DNA of 63,998 nucleotides, the filler included, from Basidiobolus ranarum (lineage: Eukaryota): assembly GCA_040143965.1 (NCBI GenBank). It is 3 parts of 3 records of this genome, joined end to end, with 100 filler letters (N's around TTAATTAATTAA, not from the genome) between each part and the next. Parts side by side here need not be neighbours in the genome. Positions count along the whole stretch, not along the records: positions 22,933 to 45,698 come from JASJQH010007054.1; 2 more parts are not named here. One strand, written 5' to 3'. The notes beneath the pieces were generated by a model, which did not search any database, was not told the origin of the DNA, and saw nothing but the letters and a program-made list of their open reading frames with translations. The translations under genes were made by a program, and so were the position numbers. The first letter of the stretch is position 1. Each line of letters begins with the position of its first letter. Shown piece by piece: positions 5,772-41,230 of this stretch.

Positions 5772-6632
5772 TTCTTTATTCGAGAGAGAGAGCCGGTTGA
5801 GTAGAAAGCTCAGGATACCTGAGAAATATAGGGAAGTGAGTTTAATATATAATCCAAGACTTGGCTGTTGAAACAGGAGGTTAAGAAATCAAAACCCGAG
5901 GTTTTGTAATGAAAGCAACGAATACATTGATTGTAACGTCGTTTGGATTCCATTAACTCTCCGTCCTCTGTAGATTAGATCTCCATACCCTAGCACCAGG
6001 AGTTTAAAAACCAGACTACGCTATCATTGAAGCATTTCCCTTAGCATAAATCACCTTTAACTATAGAGATATTTATAAATATACACTGAAGAGGGAATAT
6101 GTATATTTGGATACGCTAGGTATATTATAAATTCTTCTACTTAAAGGAAATCTGGGATAAAAATAACAGGTAACGTTCATATCTGGGGATCCCATGATAC
6201 GGGTTCTGTGATTGAAGCACCATTAATGGAATCTTCTGGCTATCATGTTCTTTATATGCTAGTGACTATCTCGACGCCTCTCGAAGCATTCCACAGATCT
6301 AACTAGGGGTCAGATTTCAGTGATGTCAGCGATTTTCCAGCCATTAGCTAATCATTGGTACCGAAAGTTTAGCGCTTAAATAAAAATAGATGACCATTCA
6401 GATCGCGGCTTACCTTCCATTTGGTCAGCATAATCCTTGAAATGACTGGATAGTATCGCTTCTGTCCCAACTTGGCGGAATGTTTCCATTTTAGTAAATG
6501 AAGGAATTATTTGCTATTCGTTCTATAATTATATTTTCCAATTTGACGAAGTGTTACTTTCTTATAAATGGTATCCATGGGCTTGGTCAACTAACTTTTG
6601 TTTCCCTTTTTCTATTAGATACTCTTGCAGAC

Positions 6633-8254
6633 ATGGGTTGCTGTTGTGGTGGTGATGCCAAGTGGAAAAGAGAAGTAATCAATGATCACAAATTCGACTA
6701 CGTTGATGTGGATGAGTTTCGCGACGAGTCTTTCTTCTCCAAATTTAAATACATGTTTGTATTTATATTCACTATCAAGTCTGTGCTTATCTACGTACTG
6801 GATATATATACAGCAGTGATGCTTATTGCATTCAACTCTTGGACCTCTTCAGTTCACTCCCAGATTAGTTTCAAATATACTCGTTGGATTTTCACAGCCT
6901 CTATCCTTGCTTCCTATGTTCTAGTATTTTTTGAGTTCAAAAAAGCACGTGCTATCATCCGCTCAAGAGATATCTCGTTCGCATTTACTTCTATCATTGC
7001 AAACCGCTATTACACCCTTCGTTCTTATCCACACTACTGCTTTTTCAACCAAATCCATAGCCAAAAGAGATTCAAGGATGATGTGGCTTTCTATGTTTTC
7101 TTTGCTCTCAAAGGTATTTTAATGCTTTGCTAGGATGTGCTTTACCAGAGTTAATCTAACATGTGTGTACCTGTATAGGTTGGAAAAGATTTCTTTTTGC
7201 CGAAGCTCCTCGTCAGGTGGTCAATGGCTACACCCTAGTTCGACTATTTATGAAAGGGTTTTACGACTTTCACAACTTATATATACCTGAGAATATGTTG
7301 GCAAATATCTCTCTGATAACCATGGGAGTGCCGTTTGTTTTGTTCGTTATCTCAGCTATCCTCACCTTCATTGCTGGATTGTTATATATTCCTTTGGTTT
7401 GCCAAATTCGAGGTAACCTCAAGGAGTATTGTTGCCATAAAATCGATAAACGGTATGTATTTTTGCAATCAATCCTCACTGAGTTTCTTATTGACAACGA
7501 TGTTTTTAGTGTTGCTGAGTTATTACGTATCAGATCTCAAAAAAGAGTATTACGTGACCAGATGTTGAACGGCACACTCCAGCCAACTAAGCCTACTATC
7601 GCAGGAATTGACGAGATAATAATGACCGAAAGTATTGGGTCCGCTGGCGGAGCCACAATCGTCGAAGTTGAAAAACAGAATATATCTTCTACCTATTCAG
7701 CACCTGTAGAGTCTAAATCGGCGGGTGCACGAGCTCGTCGTCTGAGTCAATCATTCCTACTGTCAGATGTAGCTAATGCTTCAGATCAGCGCAGCTACAC
7801 CATTGCTGTCAATCGTGAATATCGTGCTGTTCAGCAGCAGCAATCTCGATTAGCTAATCAAAAACCAACGCTGCCGAATATTAATCAATTATTTTCTGAG
7901 ACTTCTGAAGGAACTGGTGCTGTAATTGATGCATCTCATCGCACTTACATATCCTTGGACAGCCGATCTGCATCCGGCTCTGATAATTACTCCGACCACA
8001 GCTCAAATCCCTCTGAGCATCCTACTTCTTCAACCTCACATAGCCATGAGACCAGTGACTACCGAAGAAATGCTCGTCCGTCATCACCTTTGAACGAATC
8101 CTCAGGTTATGCCGCATATGATCTTGATGAATTGCCTAACAGATACCAAGACAAGGCGAATCGACCTAGCCGGACTCATAGACCTGTAGCAACAATGCCA
8201 AACCTATCCGATAGCGTTCCCAAGGTTGCACACAAGGGAGCAGTCAATTTCTAA
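6633..8254 (+). CDS. KCH-family fungal K+ transporter (Kch1/Prm6-like), 3 exons
   Basis: MGCCCGGDAKWKREVINDHKFDYVDVDEF, IIRSRDISFAFT, ALKGWKRFLFAEAPRQVVN and GNLKEYCCHKIDKR match the KCH family. Several TM segments. Introns about 7113-7178 and 7453-7509. Confidence 0.85.
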
Positions 8255-14960: not shown

Positions 14961-15582
14961 TCAAATCTTTATAACTTCAAGCAAGCACTCAATAAATGTA
15001 CCACTGATTTTACAACATATATTCTCTACGCGTGCATTTGTGAATGGACGGTTCGTAATCAAATGTTTGGGAATGTACTATCCTCAAGCGAACATGGAAC
15101 ATTTACATTACTGAATATTATGGGTGAGATCAGTATATAGAAATTAGATCGTAAGCTTGACTAAATAGGGAAGTGTAGTACTATAAAATGCCTAAGTGTT
15201 ATCAAAATATAGTAAGTTTCATTCGTTACAGAATAGGAAAAGAATTTAAGAAAATGGAAGTTTCGGTCGAATTGCTCCATTCACCTATGGTAACCTTTAC
15301 ACATGATAAGCTTTATAGTCGTTTGTTGAGAGCTTGTATGCAAGTCTCACTCGGGGTCCCCTTTTTTTCCGCCGACGCTTTAAAGCTCTTGATTTCTCTA
15401 CCTAAGCACATTTTCTTCTTTTCACTTTATCTATTTCCACGTTGGTATTATATTGTCTGCTTATTTCTTTAGGGCTGTGTACTTGGTCACTTTTTGTATA
15501 AACTTATTCATATTTGTCAATCGACACATCCTTCTTCCCGTGTCCGAGTTTCACTTTATTCTTACATTATTTATCCGCTATT

Positions 15583-16758
15583 ATGGATACTGAACAAGAC
15601 ATACAACCAATGAATGTCACTGCAAGCCCTGCCATCAACACACCAGGGGCACTAGATATACCGAACTTTAATCCTGCTCAGAATCTCTCCGCTTTTGCTA
15701 CACCTCGTACCCTGCGCCTACCTTCAGCCCCTTCAATTATGACAACTGTAGAAGCAAACAATCCAGAATCATCAGGTGTTCATGTTTCGGGGCGTACCGA
15801 GCGTCTACCGTCAGCGCCCTCCATTATGGCGAACACATTGGAAGTTCCTGGACTCAATGTTCCACAAAGCTCTAGCTCCACTTCTAAACGAGCCGCTGGT
15901 CGAAAACTTAGGGCGTATAGTTTTGATGACTCCATTAGAGAGTTTCGTCCAGATAAACTTTACCAAACGAAAGATAGTAGGAAACGTGAATCATATATGG
16001 TTCATGGGGTTAATATTTTGAATAGAGACGATGTTGACAGTTCAACTGCTATCAACCGTTTACAAAAGCGTCGTGAGCAACATAATCGGGTAGAACGGCG
16101 TCGCAGAGATTTGATTAACACCTCTATCGAGGAACTATCAGAAATCGTGCCTTTAGCTCAGTTGGAAGGAGTTAAATTCGCTCGTGGCAATGTACTTCGT
16201 TTAACCATCGACTACATTAAAGAGCTTCAGGATGAAATTCAATCCCTAAAGTTAGAGAATGAGAGTTTACGTAATTCTTCAACTCAAATACCCCGGTTGG
16301 ACCCTACTAAGCGCCCTCCAACGATTGTTATCAACCAGGCCGGAAATCTCCCAGTTAACACCACATTCCCTTCACCTAGCTCAGCTGGTTGGGAAAGTGA
16401 AGTAAGAACACCAACCGATGGCCAAGATTTCACATCCTCTATTGGTTCCAATTATACTGGTCAATTAATTAGTCCCGTCGGTTCCTCTCCTTTTCCCTCA
16501 CCGTTCCATTCACCCATACATTCGCCTATACACCCAAGTAGTCCTATCAACGAAAACCCCATTTCCTTACCACATCCTTCTCTTCCCGAAATTACACTCA
16601 CAACCGCCTCATCTCAAGCATCCTCACCTATCCCTAATCCAGGTAATCTTATGCATGTCTCAAGTCCACCTTCTCCAGGACCTTCATCCCCAACATCTCC
16701 ACTGCCTTTGCAAATGAGTAGTTGGCAACCTTTCTCCAACTCCTCCAGAAATATGTAA
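15583..16758 (+). CDS. bHLH-leucine zipper transcription factor (E-box binding)
   Basis: KRREQHNRVERRRRDLINTSIEELSEIVP...RGNVLRLTIDYIKELQDEIQSLKLENESLR. The H-E-R basic residues predict CACGTG binding. Confidence 0.92.
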   Translation: MDTEQDIQPMNVTASPAINTPGALDIPNFNPAQNLSAFATPRTLRLPSAPSIMTTVEANNPESSGVHVSGRTERLPSAPSIMANTLEVPGLNVPQSSSSTSKRAAGRKLRAYSFDDSIREFRPDKLYQTKDSRKRESYMVHGVNILNRDDVDSSTAINRLQKRREQHNRVERRRRDLINTSIEELSEIVPLAQLEGVKFARGNVLRLTIDYIKELQDEIQSLKLENESLRNSSTQIPRLDPTKRPPTIVINQAGNLPVNTTFPSPSSAGWESEVRTPTDGQDFTSSIGSNYTGQLISPVGSSPFPSPFHSPIHSPIHPSSPINENPISLPHPSLPEITLTTASSQASSPIPNPGNLMHVSSPPSPGPSSPTSPLPLQMSSWQPFSNSSRNM

Positions 16759-19023: not shown

Positions 19024-19821
19024 GTTGAAAAGATAGTATTTATTATATCAGTCTTGTGTTTGTTAACCAACGATGAGAAATAGGACTACAACAGAGCTGT
19101 TGAAGTTACTAAATTACGAATATTTGAAATGAGCTGTACTTTCTTCCTAGATTGTACAATGCATATATCCACTTACGATCATGTAACAAGCTACACTGAC
19201 ATTCCAAGAGTTATACAAGTTAAATTTTCATATTAAATATAAATCATAAATCATAAATTCATCTATTGCAATGTACACACATAAATGGTCAGAGCATAGT
19301 ATTTCGTTGATCAGGGGTTTACCCTGGTCTGTCCAACAAGTAGTTGATGTCTGAAATGTATGGTTAATGCTGGATGTGGAAAGACATGATTGGATTACGT
19401 GAGAAGTTGTAGGTCTAGGTGGTAGTAATTATATTATGGACATCCAGATAGTCGAATTATTATTTCTAAATTGAAGGCTATGTAAATAAATCTATACGGA
19501 CATGTACAAGGAGGAGCCATCCCTTTCGATATTTATTGGTCTTTCGAAGATTCTTTTTTGTCCAATCATATTCCTTCACAAGAATCAATAACCAAACTCG
19601 ACATTCGTTTATCATAAAGAGTGAGAAACTGATAAGCTGTACTAGAAACAAGGTAAACCAAAATACGAACCTTTCTTCGTCGTAGTACTATCCTGTTTAC
19701 AAAAGGGTTCTTTATTCTTTCCGGTATTGTCATCTAAAGTAGTTATTTGAAGTTTAACTGAAGTTCTAACCTTTTCAACCATATAGTTACTACTTTTTAG
19801 ATCACTTCTGGACTATCGGCT

Positions 19822-22800
19822 ATGGACTCAACCGGCTTTATGAACTCTCTTCAAGATTCTACTCTTCCTTCTTCTGTTCAATTGCAGATGCTCCACTCTC
19901 AAGTTCTTGACGAGGAGTATGCTCAGCAACATATTGAAGAGCCTCAGACCGATTTCCCCGTCCCTAAAAGAGGACCCGAAATTGACTTAGACTCGGAATC
20001 TATGTTCCCATCTCTTACCGCTTCTACTCCCGCCACTCCTCTTGCTACTTCTGCCTGGGGAAGCGACTCTCGTGCCAAGGTTGACAGAGCCTCGGAAGGT
20101 TTGAAGAAGTCTGGAATTGTGACCGAAATCTACCAACTCCAAGCTACTCAACAACAGAGACAAAGAGAGTTCGGTAACAAGAATGCTACCGGAGATATCA
20201 TCAAGCAAATCATGAAGAGCACCAAGACTCAAATCGATGTTTCTACTTCTAGAAATACTGGTACTACCACTTTTCTCATTAAGGGTAAAGTTGAAGATGT
20301 TCAAAAGGCTAAGAAAGAAATTACTTCCGCTTTTTCTCTTAAGGTAAATCTTTCTGAATATTTATTGTTACGTTAAAATCATGCCACTAACGCTCTTATC
20401 ATAAATTATCTAGGTAACTACCACCGTGACTATTCCCTCATTCTGCCGCAGATTCATTGTTGGTGCTAGAGGAAAGACCCTCCAATCAATTATCGATCGT
20501 TCCGGAGCTCGTATTCAACTTCCTCGTCGTGAGGAAGATGACGATCACTCGGATGAAGAGGACTCTTTCACTGACATCACTATTACTGGTGACGTTGATG
20601 GAGTCAAGATGGCCAAGTCCGAAATTGAAAAGATCGTTTCTGAAAAGGTAAATAGTTGCTATTAAGCTCTTCTCTTTAACTACAATGCTAATCAGCCGAA
20701 TTGATTTCTCTAGACTTCCAAGACTACCATGCGTATCACTCATATTCCTTCCGAATATTATCCTTTGATTGCTGGTCCTCACAACAACTTCATTCAAAAC
20801 CTTACTGAGCAAATGGGCGTCAAGGTTCATATTCCTCCCTTCATTTCGTCTGAGGATGAAGAAAGCAATGTTGACAAAAGTATCTTGGTAGCTGGTGATA
20901 AAAGCATCATCCAAAGTGTTGTAGATATCATTGGTAATTTGTATGAAGATTTACAACGTACTACCAAGACAATGTTGGTAAACATTCCCAAGAGACAACA
21001 CAAGTACCTCATCGGCCCTAAGGGTGCTAATCTCCAAGAAATTTTGGAAGTTACTGGTTGTTTCGTTGAGCTTGCACCAGCTAGCGATCCTTCAGAGGAA
21101 GTTACTATTCGTGGTCCCGAGGCTAAACTTGTCGAAGCTTTAACCTTTGTTATGGATAAAGCCAACTCTACTCATGTTGATGTCATTGACTTGAGCAAGA
21201 TGCACGTTGTCGATAACCCAGTTCAATATGCTCGTAACGCCCTCAAGTACTTCCTTAACAGATCTAAGCTTCGCAAGATCGAGAGCGATTGCCACGTTCA
21301 AATCATGTTCCCCAAGGCCAACCAAATGGATAAAAATGTTACACTTGAACTTGTCGGTAAATACCGTAGTCATGTTGAGAAATCTAAGCAACAGGTTATG
21401 GAGCTTGCTATCGCTTTACTCCCTGCTTATATCTCAACATGCAGAATCCCTGCTCACCTTCACAGACATATTGTTGGTCGTAAGGGACAGAACATCCAAC
21501 GTATCAAGGAAACCCATGGAGTTGATGTTATCGTCCCTGATGAACAAAATGACAGTGATGAAGTTCTTATCGTCTACGAGAGCAATCCTGAAGTCGAAGC
21601 TGCTCAAGATAAGAGATCCAAGATCCTTGCTGTTCAAGAATTGTTGGATGTTGTTAGCAAGGAATTGGTAAAATCTGCCGAAGATGCTAATGATTTTACT
21701 GTACAAAATCTCAACATTCCTTCTCGTTTCCATCGCTTGATTATCGGTTCCAAGGGAGCTACCTTGTCACAAATCATGGGATCTGATTCTCCCGCTTCCG
21801 TTAAAATCGGAAGCTCTAAGAAGGGTGAAGAGAAGCCTGCTGATGTTGATGAGAACTCTGTCATCGTCAAGGGTCCTAGTGAAGAAGTCTCTAGAATTGT
21901 CAAGGAAATTAACACCATTGTCGATGAGGCCAAGCATCATGAGATTATGAACTCTTTCACTGCTGAGTTCACTATTCCTGCCGCTTACTCCGCCCATGTT
22001 ATTGGTAAAGGTGGATCTAACATTACCAAATTGAAGGACTCTTTGGATGTCAAGATCGACATTGACGGCAAGAACGAGGAAGATGAGACACCAAAGGAAA
22101 AGGTCAAGGTTCTCATTCAAGGTAGTAAGAAGGGTGTTGATCAAGCCAAGAAGCAAATCATGGAGATCGTTGACAAATTGTCCGACCAAACCGAGATTCG
22201 TCTTACCATCGCTCCTCACTTGCACAGATCTCTTATTGGTGTCGGAGGTCGTTATGTCAAGCGTCTTGAAGATACTTACAATGTTCGTATCAAGTTCCCC
22301 CATTCTGCTGAAAAGAATGGCGATAATGATGAAGAGGAGACTCAGAGACCTGATGAAGTTATCGTCAAAGGTAACAAAAAGGATGTCGCTGAAGCCAAGA
22401 CTGAGATTCAACAACTTATTGAATTCGAACAAGAGCATGGACATACTCTCAACTTTGATATTCCTGCACGTTGTCTTCCTCATGTGGTTGGTCGTAACGG
22501 TGCTAAGATTAACGAAATCAAGGAAGATACCAATACCAAGATTGACCTTGGTAGACCTGAGGATGAGAATGATGATGATGCCATGGTCCCTGTTGTTATC
22601 CAAGGTACCAAGCAAGGTATTGAAGCCGCACGTGAAGCTATCATGGCCGTTGTTGAGGATCAACAATCTCGTGTCTCCATCACTATGGAAATTGATCCCG
22701 ATCACCACAAATTCCTGATTGGAACTGGTGGTTCTCGTATCAAGGAACTCATCACCAAGTTTGGTGGTGATCCCGATGCTGAACCTTGGCAAAGAACTGT

Positions 22801-22832
22801 CCGCTTCCCTAGAAGTGAAAGCACTTCTAGCG
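19822..22832 (+). CDS. SCP160: Vigilin/Scp160 multi-KH-domain RNA-binding protein (3' end truncated by assembly gap)
   Basis: Repeated KH motifs (HKYLIGPKG, HRHIVGRKG, HRLIIGSKG, AHVIGKGG, HRSLIGVGG, PHVVGRNG, HKFLIGTGG), an N-terminal FPSL..AWG motif and two introns. Confidence 0.93.
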
Positions 22833-22932
22833 NNNNNNNNNNNNNNNNNNNNNNNNNNNNNNNNNNNNNNNNNNNNTTAATTAATTAANNNNNNNNNNNN
22901 NNNNNNNNNNNNNNNNNNNNNNNNNNNNNNNN
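22833..22932. other. Artificial contig linker/assembly gap
   Basis: N-run + TTAATTAATTAA + N-run, 100 nt. The vigilin frame does not resume after it. Confidence 0.97.
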
Positions 22933-31512: not shown

Positions 31513-33278
31513 TTAGGTCAGTTTCATTCGCTTGGTTTGCTGTTTGCTTTCATGGAATTTTGCCTGAAATATCGTGTGGATCAATTAAGAGTTGACGGAA
31601 GTTTGGATTTGTTCATGACATACCTTTAAGCTCTTGAGTTCACTGATAATACTTTCCGATTTGACTCGTAATTCAGACGCTAGAAAGAACAGAGGGATAT
31701 TTGGTACAAAGGAATTGATGAGATTTCTACATAAACTACTTACCCGTGCTAAGCAGTAACAGATCTGTATCTTCAACCGGACCATACTGCAAAACAAGCT
31801 TTTCAAAGGTTTCAAGCTTTCGCCGCAGGACGATTACTTCGTTCATTACGCCTTCAACATCCACACTACGGCGCTTATTGAAAGCTTGCTTACTAAATAA
31901 ATACAAATTACTTTGTTCAGTGGTGATTTTACAATATCAATCATTACGAGTAGCTTACTCTGATAGACTGGTCGACAATCTTTGTTGTAAACCATCGATT
32001 TTTTTGCCATTTAGATTTTCACGTTCTCGCAGCATTTCCTAAAGATCAAAGTGGAGTTATGGTTAGAGGAATATCATCGTAGTAATTTAGTAAAACAATG
32101 TGGATAGTTCACCCTCAGATTTTCAATTTCTGCCGTTTGTTTGGCAATTAATACGTTGTTCTCCTTTAGGTTAGCTGTTAATCTAAGAGTTTCTTGACTG
32201 GATGATGATTCCTTGTTTGGTCTCTTCACTTGTTCGAGCTCGCATTTAAGTTCATAATACTGATCCATATATTGTCGCTCTTTCGACATGTGCAGCTTTT
32301 TAATCATGATAATATCTAAAATGATCGAATTCAATATACACGATGCTCTTCTGCCATGTTATAGAAAAGACATACCTCGGGTATTATCACGTGTCAAGGC
32401 TTTCAGGTGCTTAATTTTATCCAAGAGGTCCTCTACAGTGGAGGTAAATCTCCCTCTGACCGTCTCTTCTTCATGTGCACGTTCATCGTGAATAAGAGAT
32501 ATCTGGCGACTTAGCTGAGTATTTTGTTGTTTCTTTGAGAGGTTGGTTAGTCCCTTTTTTCCATTGGTCCCATCTAGTATATCGTTTACCTGCTCTTCCA
32601 GTTGTCGCTCTAAGCTTTGTGTCTTTTCGCGAAAATATATAATCTCGTCATTCTCTGATGTATTTACTAGATCCTAATCGAGTTTCCCATAAAAATTAGT
32701 CTATATGCCAATGCATCAGTTATCACAAGGCCATATACCTCACCAGAGTCAGACTCAACATCTTGTGCATACGGGTTTTCTATTCTTTTCCCACCAATCA
32801 TATCATTTTGCACTAACGAAAGTAGGTGTCGTATCCTTCTATTCTTCCTCATGTTTTCGACTAGGGAATGAGTGACACCGTTAGTAACTGCATGTAATAG
32901 AGTTTTCAGAACTATGAGTACGTTTCAATTGATCATTCTCAGCTTTGATTTCTAAGGCTTGTTGTCTCTCCTTAAGGAGTGTAGCTTGAATACTTTCGCA
33001 GTTTTCTTGAAGGAGTGATATCTCTTTCAGTCCCGCAACTACTTTCCGGTTCAATATTAGTGTGTCTTTTTCTAAGGGCTTATAAACTTTATCCATTCTA
33101 TTTATAATGTCATTGATTTCTTCGTTGAAAGAGCCTTGAGAGAAAAATATATATCAAAATTCGAACTTGAATTGACAATGGTAATTTGAAGTAGCATACC
33201 GACGCGTTTTTTATAGTATTCTAGCAGCTCTTTCGAAGGAGGCAACTGGTCAATTTCTTTTTGTACCTCATTGTGCAT
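31513..33278 (-). CDS. CCDC77: CCDC77-like coiled-coil protein, multi-exon
   Basis: [59 protein letters not shown] and KRRSVDVEGVMNEVIVLRRKLETFEK parallel recalled human CCDC77 blocks ([54 protein letters not shown]) in the same order. Confidence 0.78.
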
Positions 33279-39185: not shown

Positions 39186-41230
39186 ATGACCGTCATGATG
39201 CAAGAAAACAAATGGCCTGTTCAAACTCAACACTTACAACCTATGTCTCTTCCTCTTCAGCCCATTCAACACACCATGACACCAATGCATTCTCAAAACG
39301 AAAATTTCGTTGATAGTTATCAGTATTCCGACCAAACACAGCATATACCTTCCAATAATATGTACGTGTTCTTTGACAACTTCCGTACCTAGAACTTTTA
39401 GCTGAACCATTTCCTGTTTGTTATGTAGGTCCTCTCAGCAGTCTGACCAGTCTGCACCTCCAATGTTTCTTGCTCCGTTGCCTCAAAAACCTGATATGGA
39501 CCCTGTGAGGTCAGCATATCAAAGGTTAGTTGTATCTTGTTTCTGAATCGCTTGGATTTCTACTTAAGCTCTTTTGATCAATTAGTGCCAGCTACATGTC
39601 CAACATGCCTATGAATCCGTCGGCTCCTCGCCCTATGGATATGGCCAAACCCCGGTTGACAGTCCCACCTCATTTTGATCGTAAATACTCGCTGGACAGC
39701 TCTCTAGCCACCATGTCATATGGTGCTCCATCTTTCCATCCCACTCTGCGTAAGCGTAGATCCGATTCCCTTGGTTTCCCGAATGAGGCTGGACCTTATT
39801 TCACACAGACCAAGCAGCATTGTAGTTTATACAGCACGGACAAGACTAATAGGTAAGTGATCTTGCAAGCATGTTTGTTCACAGTTGTACTGATCAGTTT
39901 TAATTGCAGTTACTCCATTCGTGTTGACTCTAAATTTGACCGAGGTTTCTTCTTGGCCGATAATGATTGGACCTGCTACCGTCGTAATTATTTCCAAGTT
40001 AGCACCGCCTTCTCCCTCATTGGTTCGAACCATCCTCCTTCAGATCCCGAATGTCCATGTATCGTTGATGTAGATGGAGTTCAACACACTGTGATTCAAT
40101 TTTCATTGGGAGTTGTTGCTCGTGTCTCTAACAGCGATAAGAAAATCGACCTGATACAACACACACCAAAGAGAGATAAAGGCCCTCAAACTACACCAGC
40201 AGCCAGGCCAATCAGAGCTGGAGGAAATGTAAATCTCAGCTCTGTTGGTTCCAACCAAACTATTGTCACATTTGAACGTATTCAATTCAAGACCGCTACG
40301 GCCAATAACGGCAAAAGACGTGCTGCTCAACAATACTATGTTCTTGTAGTGGAGCTCCTGGCCGAATGTGACAACGGTGAACAGTACAGGGTTGCTTCTA
40401 CACAGTCTGCTCCATTGGTTGTTCGCGGTCGTAGTCCCGGTCATTATGCTGACAGTCACGAGCGCTTCAATCCGCTAGTCACTGGGCCCTCATCAGATAA
40501 TAGATATTTTACTCCTCATAGGATGTCCAATGATATGGGTTCTCCGTACTCGAACTTTGCTCCATATGCACCATTCCCTACGCATTCACCATCTCAGATG
40601 ATGATGACCCCACCCACTCCAAATACTGGTAATACCTTCCAAAATCCTTCGCCATACATGATGTCGGGTATGTCTGAGAGCAGCAACGCCACTCCAGAGA
40701 TGTTCTCAAATGGAATGAATTCTGCTATGAACTCCGGAATGAACTCGCCTAATGCCAATGATGTAGGATCTCAGGGCCAACTTCCTCAAGGTGCTTTACC
40801 AAGGATGAGTCAACTTCCCGTAGGCTTGAACATTCATAATGCACAACCTGAGGGAGATGACGTGTGGTCGAGATCACGCAACAACTCGGCTGCCAGTGTA
40901 GGGACGTACCATTCTGGCAATGCGTACAATACCGAAGATAGCAACGGATATCATAATCCTGGATCAATGGCCAACTCTGCCTTCAACAACTATGACAATA
41001 GTGAAAATAAGTCACAAATCAACTCGATGAACTCCGACCGTTTTAATGGCCATGACAACTTGGGTAACCAAGGCATGGGTGCTCCATATCAGACTCAGGA
41101 TTACTCGAACAATCTCCAGTGGCAAGGACATCATTCCAATGGATATTCACACGAGACCGAGCGTCAAATGCCCACTCATCCTATGCAGCCACATCACTAT
41201 TCTTACAACGCACCACATCAAGCGAAGTAA
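39186..41230 (+). CDS. NDT80/PhoG-like transcription factor, 4 exons
   Basis: KFDRGFFLADNDWTCYRRNYFQVS, LIQHTPKRDKGPQ, FERIQFKTATANNGKRRAAQQYY and VVRGRSPGHY. Confidence 0.95.

Follow-up and report, generated by a model that had tools for sequence, protein, structure and literature searches.

A probable orthologue of the centriole-wall protein CCDC77 encoded by Basidiobolus ranarum, a non-flagellated fungus

CCDC77 was reportedly presented by Hodges et al. in 2010 as a conserved centriole protein. The centrioles of Caenorhabditis elegans and Drosophila are singlet or doublet structures in which the triplets have been lost. In humans, CCDC77 and WDR67 (TBC1D31) are placed in the microtubule wall between the triplets, at the A-C linker of the proximal third of the centriole (PMC11060037). 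A second study describes human CCDC77 as a long coiled-coil protein that decorates microtubules when expressed alone and that moves WDR67 and MIIP, its companions in the linker, onto them (PMC12290023). That study equates CCDC77 with POC11 and with InterPro IPR037696, and records homologues in vertebrates, Chlamydomonas, Trypanosoma cruzi, Paramecium and Tetrahymena, the protein being “not detected” in C. elegans and Drosophila (D. melanogaster); in its table MIIP is given for vertebrates alone (PMC12290023, Supplementary Fig. 1a for CCDC77). Among fungi, the closest relatives of the protein described here are the CCDC77 proteins of zoosporic species (Spizellomyces punctatus SPPG_09420, Borealophlyctis nickersoniae, Allomyces spp. 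and Gonapodya spp.), whose hosts, unlike Basidiobolus, build flagella and true centrioles.

The nucleus-associated organelle of Basidiobolus contains a ring of single microtubules. B. ranarum is described as having neither flagella nor centrioles, its nuclear-associated body contains microtubules, and Basidiobolus is among the few non-flagellated fungi reported with microtubules inside the spindle organelle (PMC3281927; PMC6492006). A cylinder of nine microtubules is present in the spindle pole body (SPB) of a related zygomycete, Coemansia reversa; a 2018 review, in which the composition of this cylinder is stated to be unknown, remarks that the structure “might be a degenerated centriole”, orthologues of SAS-6, CPAP and CEP135 not having been found in that species (PMC6070874). 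The Coemansia SPB ring and the Basidiobolus organelle are the structures to which a fungal CCDC77 outside the flagellated lineages may belong, with the difference that those three proteins were not detected in Coemansia whereas a centriole-wall protein is detected in Basidiobolus. In the open-access literature we found no publication linking CCDC77, or any other centriole-wall protein, to Basidiobolus, and the main text and two supplements of a 2026 atlas of fungal flagellar proteins, whose genomes include B. meristosporus, make no mention of CCDC77, WDR67, TBC1D31, SASS6 or MIIP (PMC13358043). If a flagellum and triplets are both absent, what could a protein of the triplet wall be doing in this fungus?

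The gene lies on the minus strand of the window, by which we mean the whole stretch of DNA analysed, 63,998 nucleotides in length (Table 1). An earlier reading from sequence alone had described an intact multi-exon gene at this position, and both its limits and its integrity proved exact: the eight introns measure 60-74 nt each, all are GT..AG, several have yeast-like branch points, and the spliced coding sequence of 1251 nt specifies 416 aa. An in-frame stop stands four codons 5' of the ATG. A search with the translation of exon 4 retrieved the public counterpart, NCBI “hypothetical protein K7432_004893 [Basidiobolus ranarum]” (297 aa), to which exons 3-9 are letter-identical from residue 101 to the end, minus 19 residues within exon 4. 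This identity also upholds the earlier supposition that the host is Basidiobolus, placed by NCBI taxonomy in the Basidiobolomycota, and not a flagellated chytrid or blastoclad. The protein is already deposited, but in truncated form and labelled “hypothetical”, the public model beginning at the methionine of exon 3 and lacking the first 100 residues, those of exons 1-2. Inclusion of these exons raises the score against a CCDC77 profile (described below) by ~59 bits, to 178.0 from the 119.2 of the public form, and this gain, together with the N-terminal family motif, argues that they are real. Truncated by 100 residues and so labelled, the CCDC77 of B. ranarum is likely to be overlooked in ordinary orthology surveys. 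Removal of the 57-nt stretch that the NCBI model splices from exon 4 gives 397 aa instead of 416 aa, and the profile score is 178.0 bits without the stretch against 165.1 bits with it; since the frame is kept either way, the stretch may represent an intron that is retained or used alternatively.

Table 1. Positions of the CCDC77 gene, its parts and neighbouring reading frames, counted along the window
Feature	Position	Strand	Remarks
CCDC77 gene	31513-33278	minus	intact; 9 exons, 8 introns
ATG	33278-33276	minus	
Exon 1	33200..33278	minus	encodes N-terminal family motif L-P-x-S-x-E-L-L-x-Y-Y; missing from public 297-aa model
Exon 2	32922..33134	minus	missing from public model
Exon 3	32739..32860	minus	conserved ENDxL..R(K/R)IR.LLS block; its Met is the public model start
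Exon 4	32376..32673	minus	
Optional ninth intron within exon 4	32533..32589	minus	57 nt, in frame, GTAAAC donor, ACTAAC branch point, AAG acceptor; spliced out in the NCBI model
Exon 5	32113..32315	minus	
Exon 6	31959..32038	minus	
Exon 7	31744..31892	minus	best-conserved family block, RR..-.EG....-LR..L...E....YGP.ED..L.LL
Exon 8	31624..31679	minus	
Exon 9	31513..31563	minus	includes TAA stop
TAA stop	31515-31513	minus	
KCH, two adjoining open frames	6498-8254	plus	profile positions 1-145 and 142-251; presumably one gene divided by an intron or frame change
Multi-KH-domain vigilin/Scp160-like large gene	19801-22888	plus	724-aa frame with seven KH_1 stretches; a Vigilin KH domain in a frame upstream of it
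bHLH transcription factor	15502-16758	plus	<20 kb from CCDC77; no link evident
NDT80/PhoG-type transcription factor	39857-41230	plus	<20 kb from CCDC77; no link evident
Long open frame, 595 aa	46616-48403	plus	no Pfam match at E<=0.01
Long open frame, 236 aa	26493-27203	plus	no Pfam match at E<=0.01
Long open frame, 266 aa	8791-9591	plus	no Pfam match at E<=0.01
Long open frame, 257 aa	5115-5888	minus	no Pfam match at E<=0.01

Several searches make it highly probable that the encoded protein is CCDC77. A test profile of 12 proteins that carry the name CCDC77 at NCBI or UniRef, all of them from zoosporic fungi and none from Basidiobolus, scored the spliced 416-aa protein at 165.1 bits (E 1.2e-46 at a nominal Z=1e6), with profile positions 17-434 of 436 aligned to residues 3-413 of 416. 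Neither 200 composition-matched shuffles nor the reversed sequence yielded a single reported match to this profile at E<=1000. When 1.84 billion representatives were searched exhaustively with phmmer, 45 matches were obtained at E<=1e-3, 13 of them at E<=1e-10, the best (E 5e-18) having 30% identity and being co-linear to the C-terminal end of proteins of 400-580 aa. All 45 also fit the profile of named CCDC77 proteins at E<=1e-14 and none is a myosin, kinesin or other coiled coil; the Basidiobolus protein therefore retrieves the CCDC77 family alone. The signature blocks of the family are all present and in order (LP.S.ELL.YY; ENDxL..RKIRYLLS; RRR..E.EGF..D...LR..L..LE....YGPLED). Two expectations of the sequence-only reading are thereby borne out, namely that CCDC77 blocks run along the length of the protein and that a reciprocal search returns CCDC77, every significant HMMER match belonging to the family that bears this name at NCBI, UniRef and JGI.

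A second profile, made from 11 of the phmmer matches and the query, recovered 32 proteins among the 8000 candidates sharing most words with it, and within this list, whose restriction to the word-richest candidates means that the absence of animals and other fungi proves nothing, all 26 of the other organism-named matches are from zoosporic fungi. They belong to Gonapodya, Spizellomyces, Borealophlyctis, Allomyces, Synchytrium, Batrachochytrium, Polyrhizophydium, Gorgonomyces, Cladochytrium, Irineochytrium, Globomyces, Nowakowskiella, Physocladia, Clydaea and Lobulomyces, six of these genera having been checked in the taxonomy. For eleven of the 26, NCBI or nr gives the name “Coiled-coil domain-containing protein 77”; for a further two the beginning of that name comes from UniRef, and the name is also on two unnamed JGI entries. 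Two family members are probably merged gene models: P0006, a predicted fusion with an unrelated, membrane-protein-like N-terminal part, and P0009, a 766-aa Irineochytrium protein with a long extra N-terminal region. B. ranarum itself, described as lacking both centrioles and flagella, stands apart from the usual hosts of the family, which have centrioles or basal bodies; this is a matter of distribution and not of sequence membership.

The tie to animal CCDC77 is less direct, running through the source names, one weak language-model match and three further matches. The latter (P0033, P0041 and P0043; E 6e-6 to 2e-4) are unnamed and form a separate outgroup clade, which presumably represents animal CCDC77. 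In the Atlas language-model search, a chordate cluster labelled “CCDC77 isoform X1” stood at rank 2 with a score of 0.94. It took the exhaustive HMMER search to bring the family into view: in word-indexed searches neither exon 4 nor the public protein of 297 aa retrieved anything beyond the self-match, and a sequence profile search of the PDB gave nothing relevant (two bacterial four-helix proteins, E 0.03-0.05). As judged by sequence, then, the locus encodes a full-length, vertically inherited orthologue of CCDC77 (Chlamydomonas POC11, InterPro IPR037696) in a non-flagellated fungus, a host in which the family was not to be expected.

How far has this member departed from its relatives? Like the zoosporic-fungal proteins it is co-linear from LP.S.ELL.YY to the C-terminal helix and of similar length (mostly 403-545 aa in those fungi), and they are the top matches in all family-level searches. 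Unlike them, with their 34-55% identity to the reference P0014, it reaches at most 30% to any family member. A quick maximum-likelihood tree, with SH-aLRT support alone, was computed from 41 rows chosen by hand (20 named and 20 unnamed longer sequences and the spliced Basidiobolus model, to the exclusion of short fragments and near-duplicate Batrachochytrium rows). In this tree the Basidiobolus end branch, which measures 3.14 changes per column where the median is 0.38, is the longest in the family, and the protein falls at the base of the fungal side in an unresolved position, joining no chytrid, blastoclad, monoblepharid or animal-type clade, the placement of so long a branch being unsure. 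Of the 79 columns in which 28 other full-length members show at least 85% identity, 46 are unaltered in Basidiobolus and 33 are changed, 12 conservatively and 21 non-conservatively, whereas retention in the 28 others is 65-100%. Of 15 columns invariant in those 28, ten are kept, two changed conservatively and three radically. The “divergent CCDC77” of the earlier reading is well described by these figures; the protein is the most divergent member of the family, its rate of evolution being far above that of the orthologues in flagellated fungi.

With human CCDC77 and Chlamydomonas POC11 the protein shares its family, as indicated by the source names of its closest relatives, although its sequence is the most divergent of that family. 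The lengths are comparable (416 aa in Basidiobolus, 488 aa in human), and the long coiled coil of the human protein has its counterpart in a Basidiobolus protein predicted to be almost wholly long alpha-helix. AlphaFold2, run with a 31-row alignment on the 297-aa form, placed helices at residues 2-16, 41-249 and 254-296, with residues 16-42 unstructured and acidic and with the helix break coinciding with the conserved YGP.ED motif. The mean pLDDT of this model was 83.9 and its pTM 0.32, as expected for a rod.

The flanking genes in the 64 kb are ordinary fungal or eukaryotic ones: RRS1, RED, the fungal K+ channel KCH, a bHLH transcription factor, vigilin, eIF4E, a glycosyltransferase of family 2 (GT2), SMAP, NDT80/PhoG and an aldo-keto reductase (AKR). 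GC content is even across the stretch, and the GC3 of the CCDC77 coding sequence (0.39) is the same as that of neighbour genes. The codons chosen differ, CCDC77 favouring A- and G-ending codons and its neighbours T- and C-ending ones; RSCU correlates between CCDC77 and its neighbours at r=0.21 and among the neighbours at 0.48-0.78 (31513-33278 against 933-48403), a rough comparison in which the neighbours are stop-to-stop frames and not curated models. The weak codon bias reads as that of a low-abundance protein.

By analogy with human CCDC77, the Basidiobolus protein would most likely be an elongated, rod-shaped coiled-coil microtubule binder. Its likeliest site would be the short microtubule cylinder of the nucleus-associated organelle, where it might tie neighbouring microtubules to each other or to the matrix; this task would have descended from that of the A-C linker and been adapted to a triplet-free organelle. 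We propose this role as a microtubule binder in the cylinder tentatively, giving it somewhat less than an even prospect. The further step, that the organelle is a true remodelled centriole retaining part of the ancestral wall linker, with a fast-evolving CCDC77 cross-linking single microtubules, seems to us on the unlikely side. The suggestion of the earlier reading, that this divergent CCDC77 may be the relic of a centriole-derived organelle repurposed without triplets, is plausible but meets contrary evidence. In Coemansia reversa, another zygomycete whose spindle pole body has a centriole-like ring, orthologues of SAS-6, CPAP and CEP135 were not found (PMC6070874). The canonical function, moreover, depends on A- and C-tubules, and a ring of single microtubules has neither: with no flagellum and no triplet centriole in Basidiobolus, a canonical A-to-C bridge is not possible.

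The failure to detect CCDC77 in C. elegans and Drosophila weighs in the same direction, since these animals lack triplet centrioles and triplet loss thus seems paired with loss of the gene and not with its retention. It favours instead a true CCDC77 orthologue that serves microtubules elsewhere than in the nucleus-associated organelle, the centriolar role having been lost with the flagellum. Such a protein could bundle or anchor microtubules of the spindle or the cytoplasm, or help to position the nucleus in the very large cells, each of which has a single nucleus. The high divergence of the Basidiobolus copy is as would follow a change of function, and the 33 altered columns may reflect a new function unrelated to the organelle; human CCDC77 alone, moreover, binds ordinary cytoplasmic microtubules (PMC12290023). 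Set against this, all 26 organism-named holders besides Basidiobolus found among the 8000 word-sharing candidates are flagellated, and the gene therefore normally vanishes with the centriole, whereas a general microtubule role would predict wider retention in other non-flagellated fungi. That Basidiobolus should be one of the few such fungi reported to have microtubules in the spindle organelle also speaks against it. We regard this explanation as a sizeable minority possibility.

A decaying relic, free of selection and merely unbroken so far, would account for the longest branch in the family and for the weak codon bias. It is hard to reconcile with 416 codons open over nine exons (a random frame of this length would be open by chance with p ~2e-12 at the base composition of the window), with GT..AG at all eight introns and with signature blocks kept at both ends of the protein. 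One dating study puts the split between non-flagellated and flagellated fungi at more than 600 Myr ago (PMC7865070), far too long for neutral survival of the frame, and we consider decay very unlikely.

Still less credible is that the protein is not CCDC77 at all, being a generic coiled coil matched through its heptad composition. Pfam has no family for CCDC77, a Pfam scan of the exons and of 12 family members returning sub-threshold coiled-coil noise alone, and in the language-model search clusters of Spindly and CCDC89 score about as well as the CCDC77 cluster (0.93-0.94). This explanation is rejected on the whole-length co-linear match, on the empty shuffle control, on the 45 matches that all fall in one family, and on shared residues that owe nothing to heptads, the P.S.ELL.YY start, RR...EG and the YGP.ED helix break. 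Contamination or recent horizontal transfer from a chytrid or animal host might be suggested by codon usage unlike that of the neighbours and by the habitat of Basidiobolus, since both chytrids and host DNA are to be encountered in the guts of amphibians and in dung. This explanation is the least plausible of all and is rejected on the position of the gene mid-way in an ordinary fungal stretch of even GC, on its equal GC3, and on a top identity of 30% with no donor clade, where a recent transfer would have left a short branch beside its donor.

A few zygomycetes have spindle organelles with microtubules, and the question whether these are degenerate centrioles is as old as their first electron microscopy. 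The intact CCDC77 gene of Basidiobolus, coding for a protein of the centriole wall, provides a first molecular handle on it and makes the question of a remodelled centriole directly testable. The protein thus bears on the fate of the centriole in terrestrial fungi. If Basidiobolus CCDC77 works on single microtubules, the core activity of the family would be linkage of microtubule to microtubule and not recognition of triplets. If, further, the organelle should prove to be a remodelled centriole held by this protein, it would mean that a centriole linker can hold a triplet-free cylinder together, and that fungal spindle pole bodies arose on a persisting remnant of the centriole and not by its outright replacement.
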